Made by a program: the position numbers and the translations under genes. A stretch of DNA of 63,015 nt, counting the filler, from Asterionella formosa (taxonomy: Eukaryota): assembly GCA_002256025.1 (NCBI GenBank). It is 20 parts of 20 records of this genome, joined end to end, with 100 filler letters (N's around TTAATTAATTAA, not from the genome) between each part and the next. Parts side by side here need not be neighbours in the genome. Positions count along the whole stretch, not along the records: positions 1 to 3,067 come from NKIB01014519.1; positions 3,168 to 6,232 come from NKIB01014520.1; positions 6,333 to 9,399 come from NKIB01014521.1; positions 9,500 to 12,561 come from NKIB01014522.1; positions 12,662 to 15,722 come from NKIB01014523.1; positions 15,823 to 18,880 come from NKIB01014524.1; positions 18,981 to 22,037 come from NKIB01014525.1; positions 22,138 to 25,194 come from NKIB01014526.1; 12 more parts are not named here. The stretch is one strand, 5' to 3'. Shown one piece after another: positions 1-62,697 of this stretch. Under the pieces are notes generated by a model, which worked only from the letters and a program-made list of their open reading frames with translations, ran no database searches and was not told the DNA's origin. How positions within the stretch are numbered: the first letter of the stretch is position 1; the number at the start of each line of letters is the position of its first letter.

Positions 1-329
1 GGTACCTGGTACCCTGGTACCTGGTCCGGGAATTCATGACAAGGTAATAGGCAATAGAAAACGAAAATGATCACGTGACTACGACATATACTAGCTGTGC
101 AAATACTTTGGCTTTGGCTGTCACTACTACCGGTACATTCTACTATCTCTTATCCAGCACGTACTAGGCAATAGAATACGAAAATGATCACGTGACTACA
201 ACAAATACATGTGCAAATACCATTGACTATAGTAGTCCATATACATAATTCGCGTAGATTTCTTGCATGGTTTGAGGACTGGTTTGGTACCATTATGTAC
301 CGGTAGTCAGGAAGGAAAAGCACATGTTT

Positions 330-490
330 GTAGCCAGCCCGTAACCGTTGAATTTTCGTGATACTTTTTGGTGATACAATTTCATTTTTATTTTTGTGGA
401 GAATGGATTTTTTCGGTTTAAATCGAGTAGCCGTTACATGATACTTTTTCAAAAAAAATGATACCAAATCGAAAATGATAAGAACGACCC
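330..490 (-). mobile_element. Terminus of a PIF/Harbinger-like DNA element (TTA + GGGTCGTTCTTATCATTTT); diverged copy at 22526-22710
   Basis: The reverse complement starts TTA-GGGTCGTTCTTATC and aligns by eye with TTA-GGGCCGTTCTTATC at 22523. A TTA/TAA target with a GGG terminus is typical of PIF/Harbinger. Confidence 0.5.
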
Positions 491-648
491 TAATAACATC
501 ACCAAGTCACATCGATCCAGCAAATTTTACCGACGGTACCTGGTACAAGGAACCTGGAACCGGTAGTAAATTCACATGATTTGGATTTCATCAGATTTGA
601 TGTAATAACAGATACCGGTATACCGGTAGCAACCTGTGTACCGGTAAA

Positions 649-857
649 TGTTGAGCGATCCTGCACATCGATACAGATGTATATAGGGTTAGGGTTATAT
701 CAAATATATCAGAACTCGACTAACACCTACTGTATACTTTGATGTCAACTTGGGATACATAAGATTAATTAGCTTATATATTCAAGAAATACTAATACTT
801 CTAGTTAGATACTTCACTTTGCATTCAAAAAGAGTCCAATTAGAAGAAAACAAACAT
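649..857 (+). mobile_element. Probable 5' LTR/leader of a Ty3/gypsy element
   Basis: Starts TG and lies directly upstream of the gag relic. It is closely similar to 40499-40724, which is also followed by a homologous gag start. Confidence 0.6.
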
Positions 858-863
858 GGCAAT

Positions 864-3276: not shown

Positions 3277-3475
3277 GGTAAGTACAAAAACAGTGCCCTT
3301 CTACATATTCATATCAAAAACAAACAACCAGTACTTACACATTCATTCCCATACCAGTTTCCATCTGTAGGATTAGTCATACTGCGTGCTACAGTTACAT
3401 GTCCAGCCCTAGAGGGCTGGATGCTCTATAGGGATGACGCCTAGAGGCGTCTTCCCTTTACCCTAACCCTAACCC
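3277..3475 (+). repeat. Dispersed ~190-nt repeat ending in twin GC-rich hairpins followed by CCCTAA repeats
   Basis: Hairpins CCAGCCC-TAGA-GGGCTGG and GGGATGACGCC-TAGA-GGCGTCTTCCC. Reverse-complement copies lie at 35787-36145. Confidence 0.85.
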
Positions 3476-3873
3476 TTTTTGGCAACTTAAGTAGTCACCC
3501 CATCGTCGCTTGGATAATAGTCATTGTAGCCCTCACACATACACTAACCCTAACCTGATCGTTTCTTCATCGCTTACCTAACCCTAACCCTAATTTTTAT
3601 TTGGTTATTTTTTGGTACCTGGTATTTTGTACTAGGATACCTGTTTTAGGCACCGATTAAAATAGTCCGTTTTGGTACGTTGTACCACGTTGTTCTTTCA
3701 GGTATATGTAATTTGTGACTGGTAATGTGAATGGTGATGTGACTGGAAATGTAACGGGTGATGTGACTGCCGGTTATACTGGGGGACATGTTGAGGGCTT
3801 GAATGATGACAAGAGACAAATTTGACTCGTTATCCATGTCGTATAATGGCTTACTCGAGTGAATTTAATGGGT

Positions 3874-4551: not shown

Positions 4552-4867
4552 AAACTAATTGGGAGGAAAAATGCGAAATGGTTGGATTAAAAAACTTTAT
4601 GAAAAAACAATCATCATTGAATTTGACGATGTGAAAATCGAATCTCTCTCCTCTTCCTAATTTTGTCCTGGTGATGCTGTTCGCAGCATATCAGCTTGCT
4701 TATGATTCGCTAAAGCTTGTCCCTTAGTACTTACATTCTTCATGCTGATGAATTTTCTTTTTTTGTAAACAAATAAAAAATTGTAACTGATCCGAAATTT
4801 AAGAGATTTATGATTTTCCCTGTTCTGTATCTATAGTCTTGAAATAACAACTGTTACTAGATTGCTC

Positions 4868-6232
4868 TTCTAACTGTTAATCGGTCATTTGCTTCATATG
4901 TAGAGTACCTGTACACACTGTACCGATCTGAAGTAAATGAATCATGTTTGCATATCCAAAATCAGCCCAGTCATCATCTTTTGAGTCTAGTCATGAACAT
5001 GAATCAATCTTTAGTAAGATACGAGTAACAGGTGTCAAAAGATTTGATGTAGTCTGAAATAAGTCGAAACAGAGATAGACAGTATATATATAGCAGAAAA
5101 ATATGCAAATGTCAAGGTTCCCCTAGTCTTCATGAAGAATCAAGTCATGAGAATAGTACATATATCAAGTCATAAAGAATCAAGTCCTCTTCTAACCGTT
5201 AATTGGACATTTGCTTCAGATGTAGAATGCTGGTACACACTGTACCGATTTGAAGTAAAAAAATCTTGCTTGCATCTCCAAAATCAGCCTAGTCATTATC
5301 TTATGAGTCTAGTCATGAACATGAATCAATCTTTAGTAAGATACGAGTAACAGGTGTCAAAAGATTTGATGTAGTCTGAAATAAGTCGAAACAGAGATAG
5401 ACAGTATATATATAGCAGAAAAATATGCAAATGTCAAGGTTCCCCTAGTCTTCATGAAGAATCAAGTCATGAGAATAGTACATATATCAAGTCATAAAGA
5501 ATCAAGTCCTCTTCTAACCGTTAATTGGACATTTGCTTCAGATGTAGAATGCTGGTACACACTGTACCGATTTGAAGTAAAAAAATCTTTCTTGCTTCTC
5601 CAAAATCAGCCTAGTCATTATCTTTTGAGTCTAGTCATGAACATGAATCAATCTTTAGTAAGATACGAGTAACAGGTGTCAAAAGATTTGATGTAGTCTG
5701 AAATAAGTCGAAACAGAGATAGACAGTATATATATAGCAGAAAAATATGCTAATGTCAAGGTTCCCCTAGTCTTCATGAAGAATCAAGTCATGAGAATAG
5801 TACATATATCAAGTCATAAAGAATCAAGTCCTCTTCTAGCCGTTAATTGGACATTTGCTTCAGATGTAGAATGCTGGTACACACTGTACCGAATTGAAGT
5901 AAATTATCTTGCTTGCATCTCCAAAATCAGCCTAGTCATTATCTTTTGAGTCTAGTCATGAACATGAATCAATCTTTAATAAGATACGAGTAACAGGTGT
6001 CAAAAGATTTGATGTAGTCTAAAATAAGTCGAAACAGAGATAGACAGTATATACATAGCAGAAAAATATGCAAATGTCAAGGTTCCCCTAGTCTTCATGA
6101 AGAATCAAGTCATGAGAATAGTACATATATCAAGTCATAAAGAATCAAGTCCTCTTCTAACCGTTAATTGGACATTTGCTTCAGATGTAGAATGCTGGTA
6201 CACACTGTACCGATTTGAAGTAAAAAAATCTT
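4868..6232. repeat. Tandem satellite, ~322-nt unit, ~4.2 copies, runs off the contig end
   Basis: ATGAAGAATCAAGTCATGAG recurs at 5132, 5454, 5776 and 6097. The first partial unit is the most diverged. Confidence 0.97.
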
Positions 6233-6332: not shown

Positions 6333-9300
6333 TTTATTGGTGACACATTTCGCAAACGTCCTGGACCAGCATCGTGGAGCTTGTACTATCCCGTACATAG
6401 CCTTCACAAGCTTGCAAACATGTGTATCGGAATCGACTCCGATCAAACCTTGAGGGGGCTCAATATAAATGTCCTCATCGACGTCAGCATTTAGAAATGC
6501 TGCTTCCACATCAATAGCCTCCGCTCGCCAACCGTTGTACATCGTCACTGCGAGTACCGTTTTGATTGTCGCATCGCTTGCAACTGGAGCAAATGTCTCA
6601 GTAAAATCGACACCTGGGATTTGCTCATATCCCTTCACGACCAATCTTGCCTTGTAAATGGTCTTCCCGGTTAACACATCTTCTTTAATTCGAAACACCC
6701 ATCTCGTTTTTAGTGTTCGCTTCTTAACAGTATCACGTTTGACAACTTTCCACACTCCTCTCGACTGGAAGTTTTCATATTCTTTGTTGATCGCCTTGAT
6801 CCACTCTTTCTTGTCTGGTCTTGCCATTGCTTCATCGTAGCTTGTTGGTAATCCTGGATCAGAAGCCAGACTTGCGTTGTACACAAAATTCACCTGTGTA
6901 TTCTTCGTAATTTCCTTCATGTTATCCTCCTCGATAACACCAGGCATCTCAGTATCTCCTGAAAATTTCACAATTTTCGTACTCGTAGGATTGAACGATG
7001 AGTCCAATCTTCGCATTTCACGTGCCAACTTCGCTTGCTTAGACTGAGCACTTTCCGCACGTTTAGCCTTCACAATTGGGGTATTGGTACCTGTAACCTC
7101 GTATTTCGTAGTACTACCGTCTATCTTAGTTGATTGTTCAGTTTTCCTCCCCAATTCTTACTTGTCATCATCTTCATCTTCATTATCGGACACTTCTCGA
7201 GGTTCGAACTCGTCGTAAAAATCGTCATGTAACTCTTCATTATCTTCTCGTACTGATATCTCCGTATCCTGTTGGTTGGTGACTGGCTTGAACATTTTCT
7301 CTAGTCCATCCGTTGGTACGTTTGTTCCATGCCACTCACTCCACTTTACGTCACGTGTATTGACCACAGTATTTGTCTCGTGATTATACATGCGATACGT
7401 ATCTTGAGAGTGGTCATCTGAGTATCCCAAAAAGACACACTTGATGGAATGTGCATCTAATTTCTTGACACCTTCTCTTACAGTAACCCAACCAACACGT
7501 CCAAATTGCCTGTAGAGCTTGTAGGGCCTCCTTGTATTCGTTTCTCCATAGAACACATCATCAGGACTCTTCTTAGTCACTGAATTCACTGTACTGTTTG
7601 TCAATCTTGTCGCAGTATGTACAGCTTCTGCCCACAATAGCCCCTGATATTCATCTGTGAACTTCGCACTTAGCATCATAGCGAGTGCTCTCTGACGCAC
7701 TGTAACAAAACCACGTTCCACAACACCGTTGTGCTGCGGAGTATGAGGTGCCGTAAATTCCATCTTGACACCTTGGTTTTCGCATACTTTCTTTAGTTGC
7801 TTGGAGTTCTCACCTGCGTCATCACATCGGCTAAATTTAGTCTTATGTCCCGCACCTGCAAGTTTTGTGAGTAACAACGCTCCAATGACAGTTCCGATGT
7901 CACTTTTCTTCTTAATAAAATAACTCCAGCGTTTCCTTGTATAATCGTCCACGGCCATCACCCAATACTGATTTCCCACAGCGGATTTTGCGTAGGGTCC
8001 GCTAATATCAATAAACAGTCTTTCTCCTGGTGTCGTAGCCTTCTCTTGCGTCATCTTGGGTACTGCGCGTGCTTTCGCCTTGGCTGCTGCGCATCCTGCG
8101 CACACCTTTAAATTTCCAACAAGTTTCCACCCAAATAATTTCGATGTCTCACGAAGACATTTTTCCCCACATGTCCAAGCATTTCATGCGCTTCATTTAT
8201 TTCCACAATCACATCATTATTTTCGTTCGCGTTTCTTTTCTTGATCGTTTCACCTATCGCTTTCGTCGTTTTCTTCTTATCGTTAACTTTCGTCCATTCA
8301 TTCTCGTCTTCTTTAGTATCATAGTCGATGGATTGTTGTGTTGGCTTCTCGCTTTCTTGTCCCACCTCCAACACCGCTTCCTTTAGAATAGGCGTTCCTT
8401 GCACATGGTACATTGCACCAATTGTCCTCGTTTCATCACGTTTACAGATCAAAAATCCGTTGTTGTTTCTGATCGTCATCTTATCATCGTCAAACATAAC
8501 TTTATTTCCCTTGTCAATAATTCTCGAAATACTGATAATGTTCTGCTTGAACTCCGGTGCATAGAGCACATTGGTGAGTTTCAACACTTTTCCTTTGTCT
8601 GTCGTCGTAAGGGTCACCGTGCCTGATACGTTCGGAACAATTGCTGCGCCGTTTCCCACAAGAACAGTTTCACGCACTGCGCGCTTGTCCTCCATGATGC
8701 GCTCATCATTGCATATATGTACCGTAGCGCCACTATCTAGTAGCCAACGGTCCTTATGCACGCACGTATAATTTACCTCTTCGTTGTACCTTGCCTCAAT
8801 GCACGTCACCACGAGCATTCCTTGCGTAGTGGTGTTGGCGTCTTCTCCCTTCTGTTTGATTGGTGCATTTTGTTGATTGTTGCACTCACTGGCATAGTGC
8901 CCCATCTTCTGGCAATTATAACACTTCACATTCTTTCTCTTATTTCGTTGCTCGGGAGTTAATTCTCTCTTTTCTGTAGTATTGCCCTTGCTTCGGCAAT
9001 CAACTGCCTTGTGGCCATACTTGCCACACTTCCTGCAGTCTCCCTTAAACTTGCTTTTTGAAAAGAAGGCCTGCTCGCCATTCTTATTCGTCTTGGTTTC
9101 GTCACGCACATACAAATCGTAATAGTCGTGTACATTCTTCTTGACCTCTTGGATCGTGAGCTCGGAGCTCGCGAGACCAAATTTTCCAACCACCAAACTC
9201 TTGTAGACTTCCGGTAGGCTGTTGATAACATGGGCCACATAGGCACCATCCGAAATTGCGGAGCTCGTACGACTCAATCGTTCTCGAATTCTATCCAACT

Positions 9301-9399
9301 CCACAAACCAAATGTCGGGGTTCTCATTCTCGTTAATCGTGCATTTTGTCCACTGACCTGACAAGGCAATCACATTTGCCATATTACTTGACTCGTACG
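6333..9399 (-). mobile_element. Ty1/copia LTR retrotransposon gag-pol, partial, with one frameshift (~8165) and one in-frame stop (7158-7160)
   Basis: Two CCHC knuckles (CRKCGKYGHKAVDC, CYNCQKMGHYASEC), protease WLLDSGAT, HHCC plus integrase core (IDISGP, RCDDAGE, HNGVVER) and RT (YKARLVVKGYEQIPGVDF, IDVEAAFLNA). Domain order PR-IN-RT. Confidence 0.97.
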
Positions 9400-9499: not shown

Positions 9500-9653
9500 C
9501 CATTGCACCATCCAGCATGGACTTCCAGCTCCGGATCTGCTTTGGCTGAACCAAATATGCTCTGGCGGTTGCCTTGATATTGTTGGGCTTGCTGTATGCT
9601 TCCGCAACAATATTTTTCTTTTGCCTGATGCAGAGATATTTTTTCGTTGTCAT
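9500..9653 (-). CDS. N-terminal HTH (Brinker/psq-like) of a pogo-family transposase, truncated by the contig end
   Basis: KKNIVAEAYS...IKATARAYLVQPKQIRSWK is a typical pogo N-terminal HTH, ~390 nt inside a TA-CCGTA terminus. Confidence 0.7.
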
Positions 9654-10039
9654 GCTGATGATTCCGTAGAAAATGATTTGGTTGGCTAACCTTAATTTCT
9701 ATCACGATTAGGTTTGTAGAACCTACACAATTTATTACATCGTAGAATCAGGTACAAATTGTATACACTCTAGAAATTTCTGTTGAAGTCATGACGAAAT
9801 TCGGGCGCGCCAGTGCTCCAAAAATAGAAATTCAATTGATCCTAGAAGCCGATTGAACCTAAAACAATATATCTTTTAATGTTGCTATTTATGTTTTAGA
9901 CTATGGAGAAAACGGTGGTGAAGTTGGTTTTTTCATAAAAGTTTGACAATCAAAAAAGTTCCAATGTCTTGTACTCCCCTCTAAGTAAAATCAGTCGTGG
10001 CTGTGTACATTGAGGGGTACGAGACACCAGGTTTTACGG
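9500..10039 (-). mobile_element. Left end of a pogo-like element (terminus TA-CCGTAAAACCTGGTGTCTCG); second terminal copy at ~11318-11401
   Basis: The terminal ~80 nt are duplicated at 11318-11401, both copies ending CGG-TA. The subterminal motif AATGTACAC..GACTGATTTTACTTAG is shared with the MITE in the next contig. Confidence 0.7.
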
Positions 10040-10693
10040 TACTAAGGAGAAGTTGGTTTTATGTTAAACCACTTTGTCATAACGTGTTTGTACCAGGGTA
10101 CCAGTAAACAACTGCAGTGACCCCTTGAATGCAGAATAACATGTTTTACTATCAAAACTTATGTAAATGACAATTATGAGAGTTCTAGCTCCTTCTGGAG
10201 CATAAAGGCTAGTAGCTAGTCAGTTGTGTAGCTACTTAGTTTGAGATTTGGAGTCAGCTGTTCATCTCAAAAGATTGCCAAAAATAGCGAATCGACCACA
10301 AAACATGGTGAACACGGATTTAGCACAATAAATACTTGCCTTGAAAAAGGGGAATACAAATGGGCTATACAACAGATTATCATAAGAAAAGAGCAGCAAT
10401 AGCGACTCATCAAATTACAACCCCTTCTACCACTTTGGTAACATGCCAATCAGTTGAGACATAGCTAGTGGAGAAGCATTGAAGCTTGGAAAGCCAGCTG
10501 ATAGCATTGCCTTTCCTATTCTTACGCAGCTAGGACAATGCCTGTCTAGCGCTACAGAGTATCAAAAACTAATATGATTATGCATTTGTATATTAGTATT
10601 CTAAAATAGATAAAACTCTCTTCTGTTTTCCCAATTTGTTTTAAGCTGCCTAGGGAGATAGCTTCAGAATCAATCATACTAACACTGAAGCTC

Positions 10694-11250
10694 AGTAAAT
10701 TTCATTAGTTCTACAGGATAGCGCACATTTTTCTAAGATGTATTAATATGACAATTATTTCTGTGATGTGAAAAAAGAGAGTTCTTCACCTCGCAAGAAA
10801 AATGCGACTTCATGTTGTTATCGGCGATCTCAATTTTCGTTGTCATTATTAGTGTTATTACTTTACTTCTTTTACAATTGTATTTTCCATGTCGTTCTTA
10901 ATACAGGTAGCAAGTAGCAAACTGTCGTTCTCAATTTTCGTGGAGATAATTCGTATTTTCGTCATGGTCAAGGTTGCCACAACATGATGAAGGATTCTCC
11001 AGGTGCTCACAGCCACTACCTGTCTTCTCTTGTGTTTTGTATGTACAAAGGAATCGCAACATGATAGCTAAATCATTATATTCTAGTGCCTACGAGGACA
11101 AAAAGAATTCAATTACCTACCGGTATAGCACGTTACTTTGTCTATGACAAGAAAATTATTGGGTGTTTGGTTCCACCTCGAGAAAAATGTACAGGGGGGT
11201 CCAGCAACCATAGGGGGGGGGGTCCAGGACAATGAAGTACAGGTATACGG
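10694..11250 (+). mobile_element. pogo/Tc1-mariner-like MITE, right part
   Basis: Highly similar to 12735-13270 and ends in the same TIR, with an extra CAGGTA. Confidence 0.8.
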
Positions 11251-12253
11251 GTATTTCTTTTCATGTTGCTATTTGCGTTGCGGTGAAGTTGGTTTGCTTG
11301 CAGTGTTGGTAATCAAAAAGGTCCAATGTCTTGTACTCCCCTCTAAGTAAAATCAGAATTTGCTATGTACTTTGAGGGGAACGAGACACCAGGTATTGCG
11401 GTACCTGGTACCAGGTACGGTAGAAGTCTTAATCGACCAAATGCCGGTACGTGCAAGTTGCGTTCATTTGCTTTAATAAATTTTTTAATCAAAGATAAAG
11501 ACAGCTAAATCTTCTGTTCTGCAAAATTACCGCAACTTGCTAAAATTTTGTCGTCAAGGGGGTCATTTTCGACCAAGACCGAAGGATATTTGGTCTTGGT
11601 CGATGAGGTGGCTAAAATTCTTTGCTTTTTTGAACAACATAAGGCATCATGACGTGTAATGACCGGTAACTTCACTTCATGGGTTGGTATTTGGTCGATG
11701 AGTTGGAAAATGCTCTGAGCTCTGTTGACATGTCAAAACTACGTACCAGATACTGAGTTTTTTGTACTCCGAGTGCGAGGTCATATCAGCGGCTTTGTCT
11801 TAAATATATACATTTATCATTTTTCATAGGACGACTATCGATCGATGTATACCTCAACTTGCTGATCACAGCGTATGGGGATAGCCGTCTATCAAAAATA
11901 TTCGAAGTATGCACTTAGAGTGCTGGTAAATTATTTATACCGCTGCCAACATGGCTGCTCTTGTACATAACAGTCCTTTCCTATCAATGTCCTGTAAATC
12001 TTTTCGAAGTTCACCACGCGACAAGAAAAGTTAGGTGTATTATGTAAGAACTCTTCCTATTTGGGAAAAGTAATTATTTTGCATTATTTCTTCATCGGAA
12101 AGGAATACGATAATTTCTGGCTTTGACAATGATTCAACAAAACTTTGTCAATTTGGATCACTCGTTTCGCACTTAATTTATATTCAATCAGTTAAAAGAA
12201 GTCGCTCGTCAGCACAATTAACAAGTTCTATTCCATTCAAGCAGTCATTGACA

Positions 12254-12661: not shown

Positions 12662-13270
12662 GCCGTGACTGAATTTGACTGATTTTACTTAGGGGGGCCC
12701 AGGACAATGAAGAGATTTCCCTTATAATGGACATAAGTAAATTTCTTTAGTTCTACAGGATAGCCCACATTTTTCTAAGATGTATTAATATTACAATTAT
12801 TTTCGTCAAGTGAAAAATGAGAAGAGTTCTTCACCTCGCAAGAAAAACGCGACTTCATGTTGTTATCGGCGATCTCAATTTTCGTTGTCATTATTAGTGT
12901 TATTACTTTACTTCTTTTACGATTGTATTTTCCGTGTCGTTCTTAATACAGGTAGCAAGTAGCAAAGCGTCGTTCTCTATTTTCGTGGAGATAATTCGTA
13001 TTTTCGTCATGGTCAAGGTTGCGACAACATCATGAAGGATTCTCCAGCTGCTCACAGCCACTACCTGTCGTCTCTTGTGTTTTGTATGTACAAAAGAATC
13101 GCAAAATGGTAGCTAAATTATTACATACTAGTGCCTACGAGGACAAAAAGAATCATGGCACGTTACTTTGTCTATGACAAGAAAATGATTGGGTGTTTGG
13201 TTCCACCTCGAGAAAAATGTACAGGGGGGTCCAGCAACCATAGGGGGGTCCAGGACAATGAAGTATACGG
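12662..13270 (+). mobile_element. pogo/Tc1-mariner-like MITE, body and right TIR
   Basis: 13243-13270 is the perfect 28-nt reverse complement of 15598-15625. Confidence 0.8.
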
Positions 13271-15597
13271 GTACACTGCCTTGTATAGAGTGGGTAATAC
13301 CATCACCTCTAATAGTTTTGTCATGGAATGAAATCCCTTGTTGTCGTACCTCCCCAGTTTTCTTGTAATATGCATATTAGCATGCAAACCATTCTACTAC
13401 TAGTAGATAAAATAGTTAATAACAATTGAGGTACTAGTAAACAAGCAATGTAAATACTTAAGAGATTTAAAATTTAAAAGAAATTATCTAAACACACAGT
13501 AGTGAATGCCCGCCAGTGCAACAATCTTGTATCAGATGCAAGAGTTTGTATGTCACTATTTTGTCTTGGCTATATGGCTCATAAATTCGGTCTATTGCTG
13601 CCTGTGTTTGCAGGAGTACAGCCAGCACGAAATAGCATTGCCACTGTCTCCCACAGAATTTTGCAGTTCACTCTACTCCTTTCAACCCTTGTAAATAGCC
13701 CTTCTGGCTTTTGCCCTCCAATCCCAACCTCCCATTCCTGTGAAAGAACAACTAATGTCTTTTTGGTGTCTTACTACTATTGTAGTCTGGATCAACAGCC
13801 ATTTTGCTTTCGAAATCGTTTTATTTTGGGTTAAAGTACTGAAAGACTATTTAGTTTTAAGCAAATGATGGACTCAACTTTAAGCAAGACAACTTGAAGC
13901 AATATTTTGCTTAAACTGTGTAGACAAGCATGCACAGTCCTGAATTCATATGTACATGGCTGTATGTGTCAATACAGAAGGAAAGAGATTTACCAGCATT
14001 GGTCTACCTGTATGTCAACAATGTGTTGGTAATAACAGTGCATCGCAATGTGTAGCATTATTTCATAATGTTGTTCTGCACTCCTGTATGCACTCACCTG
14101 TATGCTGCTGCATTAAGGGGCTGCCAAACATTAACTATAGGGTATCACTAATAGTTTTGACAGCATACTTCACGTTTGTCAGCTTTTACCAATATATAAA
14201 TTGCCAATTCGTAATCAATCAATGATCAGTAGATAAATAACTTATTTAGCATCTGTTGCTCCAATTATTCATGTTATCGACGTAGTTGTAGTCTTATTTG
14301 TTGTGTAACTACTGTAAAAGTGTCAAAGCTTCTCGTAACAGCCATCATGTCATTTTAAAAATCGTGCATCACTGATTTACATGAAAAAATGTGCTTCAAT
14401 TTTCGTTGTCAATATTTAGTGTAATCAGCATAATTGTTTTGATTGCATTGTCGATGATGTCGTGATTGTACGTAGAAAATAGCAAAGCGTCGTTCTGATT
14501 TTTCGTTAAGTTATGTCATGGTCAAGGCTGGGACAACATTATGCAAAATTCGCTCTCCAGCCGTTCAGAATGACTAGTTCGGGGGGGCCCCCCCCTAAAT
14601 AATTACATTCTAGTGCCTATGTGGGCTACCTCCGGTACCCTGTACATGCATCCATCAAAAGGTGTATGATATACTATTGCATGTTTCATGGGCAATATAT
14701 TCCTTACTTCACCTTGTTTACCGGTATGCTGTATTATTAACTACAGTGTTATGTAGGTATTTGGCTGTGATGGCATTTGGGTTGAAATGATGACATCACA
14801 CATTAAGGGAAATCGATACTTCAAGCAAAGCGGTCAAACATTGTTAAGCAAATCCTAGCTATCATGGTACCAACTGGCAGAATAAGTAAAAAGATAGGTC
14901 TCAAAATTGTTGTAGGCTAAATCAGATTAAAGTTACATTTAATTCCAAACAACCAGGCGGTGGGGTGGTTTATTAAATGAAATGAAAAATCATAAGAGAT
15001 TCACATGAATCAATTTGGAATTGGAATCACTATTGCTGGCATGATGACGTGTGTAGCACTAAGATATGGATCATACTGTTCGTATAGCAAAATTACCGCA
15101 AATTGCCGGAAAGCGGACTACTGGGTACCTGGTACTGGTACCTGGTACCACCATCTTCACCATTATCACGCACATCCCGGACTTTCTACTTTCTACGACT
15201 AATCAGATTTGATTTTTCAACCGAAAAGGGAGTACAAAATCAACCGTCAATGCAACCGGGTTGATTTTTTCTTTGTTATACAATACTGTATTTTCTCGTG
15301 ATCAAGTACCAGGTACGGAAAAATACCGTGAAGGTATTTTACCATCCACAGTAGAACGATACTTGAGGCCTACAGAAAAATATGACTTGGGTTGATTTTT
15401 ACAAGTAATACCCTGGTACCTAATCTGGTGCTTCGGTGGTACCATACTGATTTTTATTATGCCTACACACAGCGGCATAGATACAATATAATGTATAAAC
15501 ACGAATGATGGGTACATGTTGGCATACTCCTGATTTATACATGTGTTTTGGCATTGAGCAGAATAATCTCTACATACAGCAACGGCGATATAGTATA

Positions 15598-15722
15598 CCG
15601 TATACTTCATTGTCCTGGACCCCCCAATGTACACTGCCGTGACTGAATTTGACTGATTTTACTTAAGGGGGGCCCAGGACAATGAAGAGATTTCCCTTAT
15701 AATGGACCTAAGTAAATTTCTT
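15598..15722 (+). mobile_element. Left end of the same MITE family (TA + CCGTATACTTCATTGTCCTGGACCCCCC)
   Basis: Preceded by TA. 15637-15722 repeats the contig start at 12662-12747. Confidence 0.8.
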
Positions 15723-16720
15723 NNNNNNNNNNNNNNNNNNNNNNNNNNNNNNNNNNNNNNNNNNNNTTAATTAATTAANNNNNNNNNNNNNNNNNNNNNN
15801 NNNNNNNNNNNNNNNNNNNNNNCCTTCATTATTAGTATTCATGTTAATGTTGTACCAACTGCGAAGCAAATACATGTTAGTCATATTATTTTTATGCAAC
15901 AACATGCAGTTCCATTCTATTTTCACTTACCATGAATAGATGTATTCCGTCACACAGGTTTTCCCATCACAATGTGTCCAACGATCCATTTCGATTGTTC
16001 ACTGTATTAACTAATGGGAAGGAATTGTGTGTTAGGCTTGTCTTGTCTAGCTTTTAATACAACAGGCAGTTCCAATAATGATGGTATGGTCATTTACCGC
16101 AACAATGATACAAATCCATGTTCAGTTTCCACATTCCTCAATAAATTGTGAAGACATTGATGTTCAGAACTTCCCTATAATCTTTGTATACAATTACCCT
16201 GATAGATATAAAAGGATGTGTTACTTATGTTCTAACGGGTGATTCTTGTGAGCATTGATCCAACGACAGTACTTACCGCAACCGTCATTGAATTTGTCCC
16301 CGAAAGTATGCATATACAGGTAAGCAAATAAACACTTGAAGAGAATGCACGCATTGAGTTACTGTCAACCCAACAATTGAATATTCTGAGATATTCACCA
16401 TGTACACACGAGTCCCAATATAATTGAGCCAACCATATATGTATTTATTTACTTCTATGTTTGAATATTTCAAACACGCGTGTACAGGTACTGTCGTACA
16501 CATAGATCTGAATATCATCAATTTTACCGATACTTAATTTTAATTTATTCAATATTGTATGATTTCATTTGTTTTGAACTTAGTCTGTAAAAATTTCAGT
16601 AAGTGATATTAGAATATAAACAATGCTGTATGAGTTCATTATTTACCACGACCTAATATAAAGTATAAATATAGGTTGTACGACAATCCGGTATGGAGTA
16701 ATAGTTAATAATATTATTAA

Positions 16721-31015: not shown

Positions 31016-31017
31016 TT

Positions 31018-36166: not shown

Positions 36167-36240
36167 ATATAAAACGTATCTACCAACATTTCTTTTGATT
36201 TGATTTGTTAACCGAATTCTATTTGATAAAATAATCATTT

Positions 36241-40217: not shown

Positions 40218-40498
40218 TTAATACATATACAAAGTATATACTGACTCGAAGATGAGCAGAATAATTGGGTTTGTGCTTGCTACATTTTAAGTAGTCAACA
40301 CGGAATCCTATATCATGTAGGTATCATGCTACCTTTGGAGCAAAGTTACTTCGTGGTAATGCATTTAGGTAAAACTTATTCGGATGGATATATGTATGGA
40401 ATCTGCAACCTGGAAAATTAAGAAATAATATTTAACCCCCGAAAATTATTGCCGTCAAACGGTTTTGAGCATGTTTTCCGGATGTCCCAGGAACCTGG

Positions 40499-44600: not shown

Positions 44601-46756
44601 CTTTAGTTGAAGTGTTCTTATCAGGGAGGGGGAGAGGCTGCTCCTGTTTTGTAAAAGTCCTAGTAGGCCAGTATGCTACCCCTGGTTGAATGTGAAGAGC
44701 AAAAAGTACATCCATACAAACCAGCAAGTTGTGGTAAATTTGCCAAAATGATGATTTGGTCATCACGGATATTCATGCCTGCTGATCCGGAACTTCAATA
44801 AATATGCTGGCTAGCTTGGACAACGATTATCTTTCATTCATGGCATGATTGTTTTGAAAACTATCATGCTGGAATTCGATTTGGCAAGAACTATTTTCGG
44901 GTGAAACTCATTCCCCAAATCTCAAACCCCCATTCCAAAAATTTGGTGTTTTTCCAGAGAGCTAGATTTTGTCAGGGTCAGAGGCATACACAGAGCAATC
45001 ATAAACCAATGAGTGTACAAATGCATAGTATGTATTGGAATACAACAATAAAAATGTGCGGGAATAAATATAGCAGTATTTCTATGTAGAATATATGTAC
45101 TGGTAGCCTCTCCTAAATTCCTGAATAAATGTTTATTATAATATGTATGCTGATGAACTAATCATAGAATGCACTTATTTTTACTATGTATTGTTAATTT
45201 TTCTACATCTAAGTGTACTGGGGAGTTCTTAAAATATCATGTTTGCTGGTACTTGTAGTTCATCATGACAATGGATGATCCGCCTATTGTAAACAGATAA
45301 AACACAAATTACAGATCAATTGTTGTTTTCAGCTACCAATGTTCTACTTTATATCCACTTGATGTACGAAGGTTTCTTATGTACAAACAATTCCCTTTTT
45401 AATCTGGCAATACATCATGGTGATATTGTTGCTGTGGTCAAGCGCCATATCGCTTCTGCGGATTTTCTATTTTCGATATTTTGCAATGTATATCAAAGCT
45501 ATGTAAACATTTTTTTCACTACTACTTGCTGAAGATACTGTATTCTATCTAGGAAATGGCTCAGTGATTTAGCACGTTGCTTTTGATCTGAGGTTGTGAG
45601 GTTCAATTCCCGCAATTCTTTTGAGAAGCAATTGTTGGGTTCAACTCCCACACTTCTTACCATCCCACATGGTCTTGCCTGGTGTGCAAGAAATAGTGGG
45701 TTGCTCCACCCCCTAATACAAGCAGTGTGTGCTGCCTTCCTAGGCGATCGGAGCTTCCCTAATGTTGTAGCTAACATGATCACCTTTTGCGAAAGGTGGT
45801 TGGGGAATCACTTACACTAACAAAACTACTAGGGAATCAAAGGTCTTGTCAGCAGGTAGCACAATAAAAGACTTGCCTAGGAATATGGGAGTACAAATGG
45901 GCTATAAAACAGACTATCCTTTTCCTTGTATTCTATCTAAGAAAGTAATAAAAGGGTTAAGCAGTTGTTCATAATTAATAGTCATTTGTTTATCATGGTC
46001 TGTTGTAATGGTAACAATGGGAAATTTCCTTTGGTCAAGTCATTGTGTAAAAATGTGCACATAGAAAATGCCTGTTACAGTAATATGTATATTCATATGA
46101 TTTGTACCACAGCTGTTTGCACTTCTGTACTCATTCATAGTATGAAATGCATGTAAATGAAGAGATTTCTGGAATAAGGAATCTTGACACTCGGAATTGA
46201 TATTGGAAAAACCCCAATTGTAGCAAAGTTCTTCAGAAACTGGTTTTTCCAGAAAATTATTCTTTTAAACAAATAGATTTTGATAAAAATCGAAAGTAGT
46301 GGGCCAGTTCAGAAAGATTAGGTAGAAATTTATAAATGTTGAATTAAAATTTCCGGAGGGGTCGAAAGTCTACTTTTGTACAGTCAATCATGGTATTCTA
46401 CCCAATTACCAGTGCCGCTAGTAAATTGCCTAGACGATAATAGCTACGTTATCATACTAGAGCGAGGTTGGGGTAAAGAAGCACTTAACTATGAGGAAAA
46501 CAAACCTAAATTTCTTTTTTACCTGGTACCGGTACCCGGTAGCAGGTACCACAACTTGCTCTGGAAGGTCCAGTAATCAGCGCACATAGTGTGCAGGTTG
46601 CTCATTTTCTGTTCATTGATTCACATGCAAGAAAAAGGCAGGGGTACAAACCCAAAAATTGTCGAACCCCTGAATTTCGCGCCACTCCATTATATTTTAA
46701 ATAGTTTTTTACACCGATGTTAAGCTGTTACTCGTTTTATTGTCAAAATGAACTGG

Positions 46757-47270
46757 AAGCCAGCAGTCAGCAGTCAGCAAAAGAAGTGAGCAGTCAGCGA
46801 TTTTTTCAAAATATCAGTGAATCAAGTCAGCAGTGAGCAAAACAAAGTCCGCAGTCACTAGTTAGCAGATTGAAGTCAGCATTTTTACAATAGTACATCA
46901 TGGTAGCAATATGAAGAAGTAGATAGCAATGACCTTTTAAGGCATCAATTTCTATTTCACAGTTTATCATCATGTACAGAGTACCCCTGATAGTATGAAT
47001 GTAGAAGGCATCGCTTTTAGGATCCCAACAACAAAAAGATGCTTTTCCATCATTGCTTATTGAAATATGAAAAGTAAACACGATTTGTACACCGGTACCG
47101 GTAGTTGGTCTCTTCCTGTGTACAAAGTAGCTTTCTTGACGTCGGCATGTTGAAGTTAGCAGTCAGCAAATGAAGTCAGCAGTCAGCAAATATTTCATAT
47201 TTTCAGCAAAGCAAGTCAGCAGTTAGCAACAAGAAGTCTGCAGTCAACCAGTTGAAGTTGGTAGTCAGCA
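46757..47270. repeat. Degenerate (AGTCAGC)n arrays
   Basis: Many AGTCAGC/AGTTAGC units at 46757-46882 and 47153-47270. Confidence 0.85.
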
Positions 47271-49257: not shown

Positions 49258-49662
49258 CAGCCTCTCTACAGAGCTGCGACAGAAAATAATAGGGAATTAA
49301 CATAGTACCACCATAACCGTACATCGCAGCCTCTACAGAGCTGCGACAGAAAATAATAGGGAAAAACATAGTACCACCATAACCGTAAGTGCTACTTAAA
49401 GGTGCTGACAAAAGATGTAGACGTATTACCTGGTACCGGTAGTAACTCGTCAGCCTGGTCCTACATATGGTGTTCTTTTGGTTTTTAGTTTTACGATCAT
49501 ACGATCCTAAAACTATGATGATTTACTGTCCCACTGCAGTAGCAACAGTCCTGAATATATGGTGTTCTATTGGTTTTTAGTTTTATGATCATACGATCCT
49601 AAAACTATGATGATTTACTGTCCCACTGCAGTAGCAACAGTCCTGAACATATGGTGTTCTGT
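49258..49662. repeat. Two local tandem duplications (~68 nt x2; ~92 nt x2)
   Basis: CTACAGAGCTGCGACAGAAAATAATAGGGAA occurs twice; ATATGGTGTTCT recurs at a ~92-nt period. Confidence 0.9.
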
Positions 49663-52618: not shown

Positions 52619-55600
52619 ATGGTAGGACTATTTGTGCTATCTATGGTGGTAGATATTAAAGGTGGGTGCGATATTTTGCTAGAATGATCGAGGCACTTGT
52701 GCCGGTATCTAGTAGCACACGGAGTACGCATCTTATCCCATTTGCGCATGTAATTTCTGCAATCACTCATCGTTTTCGCTATCATGATTGACTTCGGATG
52801 ATTGGTCTGAGTCCCGTCCTGATTTGCCTATGCTCATCGGTTCGCAGAAGAAGCAAAGGAGGAAGGGATGGAAGCCATTGCATCGGAGGATTTGGCAGGA
52901 GCAATGCCCCCTCAAGATGCCAAGAAAAAGTATGTCGTTGGATCCAGCAAAGAATCTCCGTTTGCAGAGGAGGTGAAAGTGGCAGAAGAAAGCCGCAGTT
53001 GTCGTGCCTCCTCAAGATGACAACGATACAGAAAACCGACTCGCTGTTGCTTTCCATCTTTTTGTGTTCCATAAAGATAAAGTCCTGTTTCTTCGAATGA
53101 TACGGGATGATGCACTACTGGTAGCTATTGACACTGACACTGTAGCATGAGACGACTCTTTGGAGTGACGGATGAGCGATTCCGGCTATTGAGACAGGAA
53201 AGTGAACATCAGATCCGTCTTGGCTCGACCCGCCAGCAGAAACGTAAAGGAGGCATCATTCATGATACAACTCCTGCTGATGCTGCAGTAAAACATGAAG
53301 AAGGAGCAAAAATACGCCGTAGTCGTCATGTTCATGTTCATATTCATGGTGAACAAAAGGGTACTACTCGACGAGAACTGACATTGCAACATGCCGGAAG
53401 GGAGAAAGCTGTTGCTACTACAGCAACAACAGCAACAACAACAGCTACTACTTTCAATGAGGCATGAAATATCAATGAGACTCGCCAGAAGTCGTTTCAC
53501 AGGAAAAAGGAGAAAATAAGATACAAGCATTAACAAAGGAGTCAACCACAACCTCCTAGTGAAGTAGTCATNNNNNNNNNNNNNNNNNNNNNNNNNNNNN
53601 NNNNNNNNNNNNNNNTTAATTAATTAANNNNNNNNNNNNNNNNNNNNNNNNNNNNNNNNNNNNNNNNNNNNGATGCCATTCCAGACATTTGCACAATACA
53701 CCAGGTATGTTATCCATATATTTTGTATCTTCAGAATTCATACAAAATATAGTTTATGTAAAAGAATAAGAGAATTCATATTAGATGCTGACAATATCGA
53801 TGGTAAGGATGATTGTTGATATGCTTCATGCACCCACTTGCCAACAACCACATCGCTTCGATTTTCTCCATCAATTCATGCCCAATAGCACTCCGAAGAT
53901 TTGCAGTCGATAACACACACTAATTCGAATAGATATTTAGTTTAGCATTTCAAATTTAATATTAAATGTTTTGTTCCGTACCTATTTTGTCCTCATTAGG
54001 GTTGGTTGTTGCTTGCATCCTCACGAATCATGTCGCGATATTTCTCGAGATCCATTTCGTTCTGTTTTTCTCAATCAATTCAGGGCAGATTGCAATCAAA
54101 CAATTTGTAGTGAAGTCGTCTTTCGTAATGATTTATCCTCTAAAAGATTTATCTTGAACTTTTAAAATGTTTTGTTGTAACATCAACTAGTCCTGCCTTG
54201 GAAATAACTGTATGATTGTGAACCAGCCATCACATGATACCACGATAAGTAATCTTGTTCAGCAAAACAGTAAAGACTATTTACGTGAAGTGCACAACCA
54301 TAAACTGTACCTGGTAGCATGAATTAAGACACCACAAATATCCTTACTAGCTATTTCACAAAGGAAGATGCATGTCGTAAATGAATGAGCCACAAGAGCA
54401 GGGTCTTAGTTGAACTTTGAAATGAATTGTTTGAAACATCAACTAATTCAGTCTCGAGTTCAAAGTTTTTTGTGAAATCTTCACATGAAACCGTTAAAAC
54501 TTCACATGAAACCGTTAAAAGTAACCTTTTCTCCGGGAAGAGTGGCATTAATTCATGTGAAGTACCACATAATAAACACTCCTACATAGAACAAATTTCG
54601 AAAAGTGGCAGATTTTGCGGCTTAGATGTGTGGGGAGCGTCTGTCTTGCACCAGTGTGGACTCATGGGCATGGAAGACATCCAAGGGTTTGTAAGAAACC
54701 AGTATGATGATGAAGCAGTGTCGACCCTGGCAAGAGTGAAAAATATGCACTGTAAGCCACCACTATGCAATAATATTAGTGACTTTGTAAAAATTATTTC
54801 TTCATGGCTAGATACACCAAATCAAAACTGATTCCTTAATAGTATAGCAGAGAGCATTGTCTAACATAAGCTTTGTACTTGTGTCAAGTTTTGATTGTTG
54901 AATTACATCCCTCCTACCTTTCAATCTGATGGGCAAGGCGGAGCTGAGCTCCTTCTTCCAGCGTAATCCCACCTTTGTTATGAAAATTCTGAATTGAGTT
55001 ATTCACTGTTTTCACCCATTGTAGTTTTTGTCCCAGTGTATGGTGGTTCTGTCAAACCAGTCTTGGGAGTAGCAACAATGCCAAATCGCTTGGATTGATC
55101 ATCTCTTTCATATCATATAGATAGTATGTAATCAAAGTATCCAAGTCCAGGCATCAAAGTTTTTTGTGCTCTTCTTCTGTGTTGCCATACAAATACTGCT
55201 TTCTTACCCTCCAGCCAATGAAGCCCGTATTGCCTCAATGTAGTCATCAGGTTTGTTGTCCGCCGTTCTGCTCAAGGGAACTCGGATACAGCTGTTTTGT
55301 GATGACAACTCCCTCATCATTCAAGGCACAGATTTCGATTTCATTTCATAATCAATCTGCCAGCGGCACAAGCTGTATTCATATTTGATCAGATTAAAGC
55401 CAACATTGTCAGTGACCAACAATGGCAAAATTATGCAACTCAAATCAATGATATGATTATATTGAAAATGAATAAGACGAGGCATAACAAACGGGAGGAT
55501 GCATTGCTATGAAAATCAAAATGTTAAAAACTATGATTAAATTTGTATTTTATGTCAGATAAGTAATCTAAAATAATAAGAATATCAGAGAGCAACGACA

Positions 55601-57816: not shown

Positions 57817-60800
57817 ACATTCTTAGTGTTGATCCTTTGCAAGCAAGAAAAGCAATTATCCTTGGGCATGATAGAAGAATAGTGTATGATTTTTTACCAT
57901 TACTTAAGTCCAAATGCAGGTATTTCAGTACCATCTTTAATCTGACCAGCCACAGTGCATCAGCCATACATAATATACCTACTATCAGTATGCAGGTGAG
58001 ACATGCATGATACCAACCGCTAAATACCGGTATATCCATTAAAGATGTGATGCTCATTTTCGACATCATGCAAAACATCCAAGCTGATTCTAGATTCCGT
58101 TTTTCCACATACTCGTGTATAGATTTGTCATATGTAGCTACCTGGTACATATGGCATGAACCGACCTCAGTGTCCGGTAAAATGGTTGTGCAACTCAATT
58201 GTGCTTTATCTAAATGTTTATCTGTCTTTATAATTTTTTATTTTTATTCAAGCAAAATGTTGGGAACTTGCTTGTACTTGGGTACGTGAGGTAGACGCAT
58301 GAGTTGAGTGAGCGCAATGTCCATTTCAGGATCAGAAATGAATACTTTTCATTCTGCTAAAATCAATATTTTACAATCGATGCGTACCAACAAAGGACAT
58401 TTAGCCATCATTGGAGGTCACAAAAAATAATATCTATATATCAATCCCTGAGGTTAGGTAGAAGCTACCTAAGAAATCATCCTATCTAAGATTTGATACA
58501 CCAGCTCTGTCCATCTGTCAAAATTCCTTCAATAGCTTAATTCTTTTTTTCAGTCCTCGCAAGGTGACTGACCATGTTGAAACTTTTGACGAATTGTGTG
58601 CCACGTGTATGAATGGATGGGTTTGACCATTTATTTGAGGGCCAATCAAAATTAAGCATCAATTAAATTCGTACGAAATCGAATTTTGGATTTCGAAGGT
58701 GATACCGTACCTTAGTCACACTTTCTCCTGCTGGGGAGGTTCGGTTCAAAAGACCCGATGTCTTCAATGAATTTGTGACGAAATCTGTATATAATTTTGT
58801 CGAATTCTTGTTGGGAGAATCATCTACGGGTATGCTTCTGCAAGTATACACCAGGTACATATATAACGGATGGTAAATTATCCATCGATCTTATGAACAA
58901 CGAAATTTCGGTATTATCTTGTGTTTCATTCATAATTAGGAGACGATCCAGCATTAAGCCTTTGTTCCAACCTAAATTGATTCTTGTTATTACTCAGCAG
59001 TTGCGCTTTGGTGGAAAGAATCACTGCAGAGTCATTGCTATATCACTTTCCAATTGAGTCAGAGAGGCACATAGCATTAATGCAACATCAACCAAATCTA
59101 ACATTATCAAATCGTTGCCCTAAATTATTAGTAAATGAATATGATAAGGGCAAACAATAATGAGGAATTCCCTTTCTTTCAAGAAACAGCTGGATTTGCA
59201 AGCCATTTTACTCAAGGAAATAAACTAACAGCCCTTAAGTTGAAACTTCACAGGATCCAGGTAGGATGGAAAGTGTCTCAAATATAGATCAAGAATCTGA
59301 AGCATTTATAAAAGAGAAGAGTGGAGGAGGAGTTTAGCCAAAACTTGTAAAATAGTCATCAGGAGGTGAATAATGGAATCAAAAATGCCACTTTAGAAGC
59401 AGGCATGCTAACCACTAAGAAGCCATTCCCATTTTAAAAACTATTGAAAGAGGCTTTCCCATACATATGTTGGTTCAACATGGCTGCATTAACAGGCACA
59501 ACAATAAAGCTGTTGACTTTGACCATACTTTCCCACAGGCCGATAGGGTCATAGGGCATTGGGCTGCTCCATAATCATATATTACAATGTATGCTCAACA
59601 GTTTTACTCTACACTAATCTATCTTATCCTTAGTTGCCTGAGGAGGGTTCAGATATTTTGGAGTGATCCTTTATGATAACCCTTCTTGATTGGTTACACC
59701 TTGGCTGGAAGCATTTATCACTTGCATTGGTTTAACAATGAAACTTGAAAAAAGGTTTGGATAATGGATGGCTGTGTGATTTCAACCTTGCCTTGAAAAA
59801 GAAATGTAGATGAGCCCATGAGTTCATGGGTCTCACATTCATAGTTGCTCGGTAACTCAAGTGCCTGTGNNNNNNNNNNNNNNNNNNNNNNNNNNNNNNN
59901 NNNNNNNNNNNNNTTAATTAATTAANNNNNNNNNNNNNNNNNNNNNNNNNNNNNNNNNNNNNNNNNNNNGCCACCATCCTAGCATCCCTGGAAATTTCCA
60001 TGGAAGCCACAAAGAAGACGTCAAACGAGTTAGTGTTCAGAGCGTTGCATGACAGAGTCCAATTCCCGCTGTCTTGCCATGTTAAGACTCGAATTATAGG
60101 CAATCTATTGTCCCATACACTTCCACTTGCAATACACATATATAGGCAGGTCTTGACAGAGATACAAAAGTTTAAAAAGTGTTGCTCGACCCAATTTTTT
60201 GTATCTCCAACATCCGGGTGGTATGTTGCTTTCGGCAACACATTATTTGTTGCTCCGAAATGTGTATCTTTGTGTATCGCTGCAGATACAGCATTAAGCG
60301 ACACCATTTTTATCTCTAATGTCAATAATGGAAACGAGTTTTTGGAGGAGGGATCAGCAGCAGTTATTATTATTGCAACTCGTTTAATTACCAACAAAAA
60401 TGGTCGCATGGTGGAAGAATGGCGACTATCTGCTCATGACACTGCCAAGTCCATTATGCTCCGACAATGTACGCAGGAAGCTGCTTGCATGGTCGGAGAG
60501 AACAAGTATAGTTGAATTGACATTCACGGTTGGGAAGGAATAGGACAGTCGGCGGCCCTCACCACAATTGTTGTTTCTGCTCGAAATTCGGGATACATTG
60601 TCCTAGTATACATGCCTGACGGCGATTACTGGTGTCTGTTGATAGGCCAAGCGTCCTTCATAAGTGTTTTTATAATATGTCCTTTCAATCGCAAGAAATT
60701 TGCGCCAAGTTCTTGCAGTGTCACGAAAATGATTTGGAAGGACAATTTAGTGCAGCACCGACCCCTATTATGAGGAATCAATTGAAACAATACATATCCA

Positions 60801-61009
60801 AACATCTACCACCAAACAAAGAATTCGAATTGTCAAAGGCAACCAATCATGGCGAACCGAAATGAAATGAAACAAAAAGATTGGGTATAAAGTTCGTCGT
60901 TGTAAATACAAGTGGATGTGTTGCAGTCAAGAAAATGATAGCTATGCGTTCAGAAGGAGGATGAAAGATTCATAATTTTGTTGTAATTTTTCTAATAAAA
61001 GTGTTTGTT

Positions 61010-61213
61010 TTAGATTTGAAACTTTATATTGGCTTGCAAGCCAGAATTACTGGGAGGCATGTCGACAGAGATTTCAAAAACGTTGGCAATTCGGAGTTTA
61101 GTGATGGTCTCTGATTTTGCGGCGATGAAAGACCTTGTCGGACAAATGGATTGAATGAAAGCATCAACACCAGCCAAAAGACAAGAGGCAATTGCGATAA
61201 ACGAAGCTCTCAT
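61010..61213 (-). pseudogene. Truncated 5' part of a nucleus-encoded plastid protein gene
   Basis: Signal peptide MRASFIAIASCLLAGVDA|F, a Ser/Thr/Arg-rich transit-like stretch, ~25 mature residues, then a stop. Confidence 0.6.
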
Positions 61214-61607
61214 TTTCTAATTTACTAGGAGGATATGTTGAGGAAGGCTGGTGAGTGTCGCTGTCATGATGGAAATAGTCTTCATCCTTTGCGTTTAATA
61301 CCAAGTAATATCAATAGCAACAAATTCGAATGCTGCGTCTGATGCACATGACTGCGGAGACACGAAAAAAGGCTAACTGTTTTGCCATTACTGAGGTCTA
61401 TTTGTGAAATCTACCTCTGTAAAGATTCATTTTTTCTGAAGATACAATTAAAAAATTAAAGAAATGTATCTCTGTTAACCTGCCCATAGATACACATTTC
61501 GGAGTAACAAAAAAGTGTTGCTGGAGCGAAGCAACACACCACCCGGATGTGTGAGATACAAAAAATTGGGCCAAGCAACATATTTTTAATTTTTGTATCT
61601 CTATTAA

Positions 61608-62697
61608 GTTTCGTGCATTTCAACCCAAAGGCAAAAATTAAAATATTGCTTAGGGTTGCGGAAATTCCCTGGAACTAAGAATTTATATGAGCTATTTTTG
61701 AATTACATGGTTCCATTTGAAATATTCAAATCAGTGGAAATTTGGGTGTGCGTGCATAGATTCCTTTTCGAATTCCCTAAATATATATGTATAGATTGTA
61801 CATCTCTATATGTATAGATTGTACATCTCTCTATATATACTGGTATACACTCTATACACTGATCGACAGTATATGTGTCATACAACCCAGTGGCTCAGCA
61901 AGTATTTGAAGTGCTTTCTAGGAGTGGTACGCATGTGTCAAATGATAATCATCTACCGGTACCCATGGTGGATATGGTACCGGCGTACCGGCGATCGCCC
62001 AAGAAAATTTTAAATGTGTATCCAGTGTGGCTGGTGTGGGTTTGCAAGACCTCGCAAACCGGGCCAATCAAATATCGGTAAGTAATTGAACTTGACCAAT
62101 CAAAATATTTATAGTGAAGCAGACACTTACAATGGAACTTTTTGTACAGAAGATTATAGGACGAAAAATTGAATCACAAGACTTCAATTCCGATGATGAT
62201 GTTTTGGCGATTATTGATTTTGATTCCGACATTTTGGAGACCGTTGAAAAGGCCAATATTGTCGAATTTTCGAACAACGATAGCTCAACGTTGGAAGGGT
62301 TTAAAGAAGTGCTAAGTGCATAGGTAATCTTCATATAACCGCAGAAGTTAACTTTCGGCGAGAAAGTGCAGAAAGGAACTTCGGTTTTTTTATTAGGCTT
62401 TATAAACTAGTTGGCCCAGTAAAATCCACTATTTTCAGCATAGTTAAAAAACCGAAGTTCCTTTCTGCACTTTCTCGACAGATCCTAAATCCTGACGATA
62501 TATAGCGTTGACCTATAACCCTACTTTGTCAGAAGACAGTATCTAACCATATGGAAAGGTTATATATTGGTGAAAGCTCTGTTTAGCGATATACATTGAT
62601 GTTTTACTCGTAAGAAGTGTGTGTTTGAGTACCGGTACTCTGACTCAATATTTCTTTTTTAACCCTACTTCTAATCTAGGGTTGAAATGCAGGAACC
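61608..62697. mobile_element. Complete, diverged copy (second subfamily) of the Kolobok-like element
   Basis: TTAA-GTTTCGTGCATTTCAACCC ... GGGTTGAAATGCAGGAACC-TTAA; collinear with the reverse complement of 16721-17931. Confidence 0.88.

Follow-up and report, generated by a model that had tools for sequence, protein, structure and literature searches.

The question raised by a 63,015-nucleotide stretch of Asterionella formosa DNA (GenBank assembly GCA_002256025.1), referred to here as the window, is what process wrote the short TA-bounded palindromes TACCGGTA and TACCWGGTA (W being A or T) that recur along it, singly and in chains. The window consists of 20 contigs, each about 3.05 kb in length and joined by N44-TTAATTAATTAA-N44 linkers, drawn from a eukaryotic, repeat-rich assembly of 68.4 Mb in 15,436 contigs; a diatom affiliation accords with freshwater sequencing runs that contain one gene and with one cluster label in the ESM Atlas. 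These motifs are very probably the excision footprints, or scars, of resident pogo-type transposons that duplicate TA on insertion, a footprint chemistry that is already known and whose scale here is unusual.

Whole-genome counts, with the reversed words as controls, identified 28,528 occurrences of TACCGGTA (control 1,718) and 26,886 of TACCWGGTA (control 902), giving a scar total of about 55,000 and roughly 0.36 Mb of added sequence. Both words also lie far above the expectations of an order-3 Markov model in the 61-kb window (23 vs 1.5 for TACCGGTA; 16 vs 0.7 for TACCWGGTA) and in a 200-kb genome sample of 20 stretches of 10 kb taken from four long contigs (88 vs 4.0 and 57 vs 2.5), in keeping with the k-mer enrichment expected by an earlier note on this DNA, which had proposed stacked transposon footprints throughout the window. 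The chains named in that note are all present (3-19, 537-545, 613-646, 11402-11422, 15126-15147, 26114-26122, 46520-46541 and 47096-47103); its listing of TACGGTA as a further pervasive scar does not hold, since TACGGTA/TACCGTA occur at background frequency (window 6 vs 5.2, sample 19 vs 14) and at least two of the window copies (10035, 15596) mark the termini of elements instead of scars. TACCAGTA/TACTGGTA are enriched too (54 vs 11 expected), with modest enrichment of TACCAGGGTA and TACCCGGTA, and weak enrichment of TACAGGTA, the type seen at 11235 (12 vs 6.7 in the genome sample); TACATGTA is barely enriched (9 vs 4.3). With enrichment nil or slight, TACCGTA, TACCTA, TACATGTA, TACTAGTA, TACCACTA, TACCATGGTA and TACCGCGGTA were rejected as major scars. 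Inside open reading frames (ORFs) of at least 200 amino acids, which make up 42% of the sample, lie 6 of 145 CCGG/CCWGG words, a depletion (p 2e-14 per TA) explained by purifying selection. Across the whole sample TACGTA (52 vs 23) and TAGCTA (89 vs 36) are about twofold enriched, an excess that may comprise one-base scars and a class of GC additions considered below.

That the motifs arrive as blocks at a duplicated TA is evident from an all-against-all comparison of 190 sequences, in which polarised non-tandem gains of 5-8 nt were collected. Within repeat families, 22 of 34 such gains convert TA to TA-CC..GG-TA (12 CCGG, 4 CCWGG, 3 CCG/CGG and 3 others), the total of 34 being rough, since two sites are each counted twice and misregistered alignment has placed two scars among the 12 'other' rows. 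A CCGG core stands between duplicated TAs 111 times and a CCWGG core 73 times; between any other duplicated dinucleotide either core occurs at most 6 times. Family K, a TTAA-flanked 1.2-kb repeat, served as a neutral recorder of insertions: across 30 copies, diverging by 4.05% from their consensus over 36,073 bp, TA has become TACCGGTA at nine separate consensus sites, TACCAGGTA at one and TACCGTA at two, and a single GGTACC site has acquired CCWGG-type units in six copies. One insertion is common to 12 of the 30 copies. TTAA-flanked high-copy repeats with GG..CC ends, presumably Kolobok-like, occupy 16717-17935, 38500-40223 and 61600-62703 of the window and more than 1,200 candidate places. 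Two insertions singled out in the earlier note are borne out by the same alignments: at 11235 the remaining copies of the MITE (miniature inverted-repeat transposable element) end compared read GAAG-TA-TACGG, which marks the longer form as derived, and at 62630, 35 homologous stretches are shorter while 5 share the gain.

Candidate sources are resident in the genome, in the form of DDE_1 (pogo-type) elements and a MITE with CCG or CCA termini and a duplicated TA, so that the inserted bases match the CCG..CGG and CCA..TGG ends of resident elements. MITE A (648 bp) has CCG ends reading CCGTATAC and at least 475 candidate places. Pogo family B, also CCG-terminated, has ends reading CCGTAAAACC; its complete copy of 1,861 bp lies in L144, its inverted repeats are found on L144 and L154 with TA flanks and a transposase between them, and this transposase is assigned to DDE_1 (PF03184, E 1.1e-21). 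The resident elements with CCG termini predicted by the earlier note thus exist, and the chain at 11402 begins, as it had described, on the TA right after the CGG terminus of family B, with a related chain in L002, a paralogue of this site. The features of the window are as follows.

3-25: chain TA-CCTGG-TA-CCCTGG-TA-CCTGG(T).
537-646: scar cluster, TACCTGGTA at 537 and TACCGGTA at 613, 621 and 639.
9500-10039, minus strand: pogo family B end with terminus CCGTAAAACC and TA at 10040-10041, truncated by the contig start; 98% to the complete L144 copy.
10091-10285, plus strand: scar TA-CCAGGG-TA, then from 10101 a decayed CCA-family end; 79% to a CCA-family MITE in L249.
10691-11253, minus strand: old MITE A copy, 92% to a complete copy, with insertions relative to other copies, namely a gain of 15 nt that contains TA-CC-TA-CCGG-TA (11114-11125), and TA-CAGG-TA (11238-11245).
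11282-11401, minus strand: decayed family B terminus with its CGG end at 11401; 82% to the family B end.
11402-11422: chain TA-CCTGG-TA-CCAGG-TA-CGG-TA, adjoining the family B terminus.
12662-13270, minus strand: MITE A copy without the 11238 insertion; 97.5% to the complete copy.
15126-15147: chain TA-CCTGG-TA-CTGG-TA-CCTGG-TA.
15598-15722, plus strand: MITE A end, TA followed by CCGTATAC, truncated by the contig end; 100% over 125 nt.
16717-17935: family K repeat, 1.2 kb, TTAA-flanked; 30 copies aligned.
23771-23778: TACCGGTA, by which one repeat copy is 6 nt longer; short form in 4 homologous stretches, long form in none.
26112-26139: degenerate chain TA-CCAGG-TA-CCTGG..., directly outside a CCA-type terminus.
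26140-28350, plus strand: pogo-like element starting TA followed by CCACCTAAAAACTG, with a broken transposase ORF, truncated by the contig end; terminus common to other copies.
46520-46541: chain TA-CCTGG-TA-CCGG-TA-CCCGG-TA.
47089-47103: (CA)CCGG-TA-CCGG-TA.
49427-49441: chain TA-CCTGG-TA-CCGG-TA.
62630-62637: TACCGGTA acquired by a repeat related to family K; short form in 35 homologous stretches, long form in 5.

Empty, filled and scar states of one site are represented in contigs from four environmental runs (X1, X12, X14 and X15) placed on L253 (G000:C15135:8000-17999). Positions 5080-5727 of L253 hold MITE A in the assembly, between two TAs. One 3,128-nt contig of X1 (record 2) joins 5077 directly to 5728, a plain pre-insertion TA, and one 3,208-nt contig of X12 (record 11) joins 5080 directly and contiguously to 5725, reading TAC|CGGTA, which relative to X1 is a gain of 6 nt (TACCGG) in which each extra letter matches a base of an element end. 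The series is formed by the assembly, X1 and X12, with none of the contigs listed for X14 and X15 spanning the MITE site. Among the 40 differences shown, of 223, X12 shares the state of the assembly, unlike the other three runs, at 4643, 4709 and 8935 and opposes it at 4789, lending mild support to descent of the X12 scar from the same MITE A insertion. Elsewhere in L253 a TACCGG gain after 4491 is found in X1 alone, and one chain unit at 5873 is absent from X1 and X12. Among repeat paralogues, two more TAs occur plain, filled with a CCG element and as TACCGGTA (L146/L055 and L019/L051), although these triplets, judged from sequences at 78% identity, are probably independent events.

The CCWGG units point to a second group of elements, with CCA termini. 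Its complete members measure 3.4-3.5 kb and carry CCAGT ends; it also has shorter derivatives, and relatives that end in CCAC, such as the window element at 26140, to which the genome holds 144 protein matches. Its transposase returned no match in a Pfam search (window copy and L071); the relative in L071 groups with DDE_1 clusters in the ESM Atlas (score 0.95). A genome search for a DDE_3 (Tc1/IS630-type) partner was without match, which does not itself prove absence. G precedes the TA at 201 of 234 exact CCA ends and GG at 31 of 35 inspected flanks, mostly with A/T ahead of the GG; the two ends of the element in L204 differ at -1. A 4-bp GTAC duplication with canonical CAG ends predicts 26 reciprocal-G ends and was rejected, since only 2 exist, against 26 C-TA ends; the duplication is therefore TA, within a preferred WGG-TA-CCW. 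A C follows the scar at 84% of CCWGG and 35% of CCGG units, compared with 25% for any TA, with CCWGG found mostly in chains and CCGG mostly single, and 45 of 72 WGGTACCW sites in the sample adjoin a scar unit. CCG elements adjoin scars in 1 of 52 cases, a count that misses scars one TA further out and in which the MITE A flanks are query-biased. Chains mix CCGG, CCWGG, CCAG and CCAGGG units, and CCA elements are located inside chains in L084 and L196. Unchained CCAG words have a context like that of CCGG and are probably CpG-decayed CCGG, methylation being a feature of diatom repeats. The earlier note had traced footprints and chains alike to CCG-ended elements building at TA hot spots; such elements exist and repeated insertion and excision is supported, whereas the TACCWGGTA units and most chains point instead to the CCA family with its GG-TA-CC target, and the hot spots owe their existence at least in part to the scars.

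A mechanism consistent with these patterns can be proposed. CCG elements (family B and MITE A) would insert at many kinds of TA, and upon excision terminal bases would remain on the flanks as 3' overhangs, of presumed length and repair route; two CCG overhangs could pair through CG and be filled in, yielding TA-CCGG-TA and a gain of 6 nt. CCA elements (CCAGT..., CCAC...) appear to insert at G-TA-C, best at WGG-TA-CCW, and their excision would yield TA-CC(A/T)GG-TA and a gain of 7 nt, a presumed link, not seen as an allele. Overhangs of four nucleotides, CCAG, would pair C:G, A:A and G:C, giving either orientation of CCWGG. A CCWGG scar in GG-TA-CC would double the target there, and a further target would arise wherever two scars, of whichever kind, lie side by side, such that the CCA family could return to old scars and chains lengthen unit by unit. 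The numbers are feasible: family K records about one CCGG scar per 150 substitutions, near the level at which gain and decay of an 8-letter word would balance, and as a rough estimate only about 1e-7 moves per element per generation would be needed at a mutation rate near 5e-10. CCA elements are drawn to chains by sequence, and a self-feeding loop of scars and targets is probable. The broader proposition, that a transposon family farms its own landing sites, with each scar doubling the preferred target, most targets self-made and chains serving as ordered logs of visits, and that the same process may have written the 'promoter motifs' TACATGTA and GTACCGGTA of other stramenopiles, with transcription factors taking them over afterwards, has in our estimation about an even chance of being correct.

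Several observations weigh against this account. Scars are about 100-fold more numerous than exact CCA ends; of 35 such ends, 18 adjoin a scar unit, close to the 40% at which GG-TA-CC half-sites in general do so, so that adjacency shows target choice, not authorship, and was dropped as proof of the latter. CCA overhangs of three nucleotides cannot pair and would need a mismatch or trimming to give CCWGG, and 4-nt scars of the CCAC type show no enrichment (8 vs 10). Allele pairs of CCA element and CCWGG were seen only among paralogues and embedded in chains, none at a single-copy site, and a third paralogous site carries CCAGG and CCAG scars but has a CTC-ended MITE in its filled copies, at odds with a one-to-one pairing of element and scar. 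On the CCG side, the X12 letters derive from the coordinates of a single assembled contig of depth 8, at one locus, and Sleeping-Beauty-like TACCGTA/TACGGTA words are not enriched (25 vs 19), yet three were seen as new insertions. Identical neighbours within chains, counted over all unit types, slightly exceed expectation (49 vs 39.8 of 220), an observation shared with the first of the rival explanations.

In that explanation single scars are footprints, with chains being microsatellites grown by replication slippage of GGTACCW units; beyond the excess of identical neighbours, it can draw on one chain of 13 units and on gains at GGTACC sites that allow a reading as a 6-nt duplication with an added W. 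It is nonetheless unlikely, as slippage would have new units copy their neighbours and adjacent CCWGG units show 33 same to 32 opposite orientations, while the mixture of unit types within chains and the CCA elements lodged inside them are equally foreign to it; slippage may still add units to some chains. Transposon-independent repair, in which fill-in of a staggered break at TA is accompanied by the addition of untemplated bases, finds precedent in a class of short duplications plus C/G at any dinucleotide, comprising 39 of 40 three-base and 14 of 15 four-base cases, with GC in 11 of 18 two-base additions. That class, however, adds G at 3' ends (GC order), where the scars need CC..GG, and TAGGCCTA occurs once against 111 for TACCGGTA, with CCGG (almost) confined to the space between TAs; together with the filled and scar allele pair at L253 this makes repair a very improbable origin.

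The TA-independent class itself duplicates 2-3 bases around one added C/G or GC, as at 38558 (GT-GC-GT) and 38657 (TA-C-TA) in the window, is commoner than TA scars in the alignments of repeat families (L001-L170), where deletions show no C/G-type bias, and resembles either the result of adding untemplated G where breaks are staggered or the scars that a different class of element would leave. Selection of the motifs as transcription-factor sites, as argued for TACATGTA in Phytophthora, accords with the position of 139 of 145 words outside long ORFs and with the rejection of a footprint origin for TACATGTA by Seidl 2012 (PMC3520976), the binding of TACATGTA by PsMyb37 (PMC11134190) and the listing of GTACCGGTA among oomycete promoter motifs (PMC10031896). 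ORF avoidance is explained by purifying selection, however, and block insertion inside repeats, at nine unrelated TAs of one family, and differences in scars between samples speak against selected sites, which we place marginally below repair in likelihood; a later use of scars as binding sites is possible. An assembly or polishing artefact, for which the knowledge of alleles from assembled contigs alone might be invoked, is the least credible explanation of all, given independent environmental contigs that carry the same stretch with their own TACCGG gains and losses, the sharing of one insertion by 12 of 30 repeat copies, and the ORF depletion noted above.

Further features were observed at element ends and elsewhere in the window. 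Several CCG-element ends (window 11251 and 13271; L030 and L144) read CGG-G-TA, with one extra G before the TA, and many CCA ends lacking a flanking G show TA-C-TA or TA-GC-TA outside the terminus; both may reflect the same G-addition acting at transposon ends. A CTCCCTC-ended MITE, which we take to be Stowaway-like, is inserted at G-TA-C inside family B (L097:6143-6903 and L156:2023-2829); the scars expected from it (TACTAGTA, TACTCTA) are not clearly enriched. A 310-nt stretch is identical, in opposite orientation, on two contigs (31196-31505 and 53800-54109), and is either a very recent repeat copy or the overlap of contig ends. Tandem arrays reach contig ends as 322-nt units (4865-6232) and 180-nt units (18438-18880); broken coding pieces of long terminal repeat (LTR) retrotransposons lie at 1188-2666, 6333-9399 and 28451-29805 (with an RNase H match for 2061-2663, the others assigned by eye); and a small repeat bounded by TTAGGG-type units (AGGGTTAGGG/CCCTAACCC) at 35630-36170 and 3470-3600 is the source of the CCCTAA enrichment in the window.

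Read as footprints, the motifs would identify transposon excision as the chief origin of non-tandem insertions of 5-8 nt among the repeats examined and as a process that writes non-coding DNA, offering a repeat-forming route without slippage and a countable record of past transposition. They also counsel caution in motif discovery, where abundant TA-CC..GG-TA palindromes need not have a regulatory origin, and the dismissed footprint origin of oomycete promoter motifs becomes testable by the same alignment and allele tests. No account was found in the open-access literature of footprints as the commonest words of a genome, or of a scar multiplying its own target.

The closest known systems have features in common with these scars. 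The transposase of Tc1/mariner elements makes its cut in the non-transferred strand some bases inward of the terminus; after end joining, 2-4 bases from the beginning or end of the element remain between the TAs (PMC6943129); the Sleeping Beauty footprints TACAGTA/TACTGTA likewise consist of a duplicated TA enclosing 2-4 element-terminal bases, with a central A/T ambiguity like that of CCWGG (PMC6943129), whereas the dominant scars in A. formosa retain bases from each of the two ends (CC+GG, CC-W-GG), vary very little and total about 55,000. Passer, of the pogo superfamily, has the target AAGTACTT and footprints of 0-4 bp, and resembles the A. formosa elements in its pogo-type transposase, a type that is probable for the CCA family, and in a TA target inside a G-TA-C palindrome (PMC9976928); the CCA target WGGTACCW is rebuilt by the family's own presumed scar, for which the available part of the Passer report describes no equivalent (PMC9976928). 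Stowaway in intron 4 of the Triticeae beta-amylase gene shows repeated gain and loss at one TA, with an element beside an older footprint, but at one locus and with varied scars, where those of A. formosa are genome-wide, stereotyped and chain-forming (PMC1925063). The oomycete motifs TACATGTA and GTACCGGTA are alike in being abundant TA-bounded palindromes in non-coding DNA, GTACCGGTA being an identical word (PMC3520976, PMC10031896, PMC11134190), and differ in that the literature presents them as transcription-factor sites; for TACATGTA a footprint origin was weighed there and dismissed (PMC3520976).

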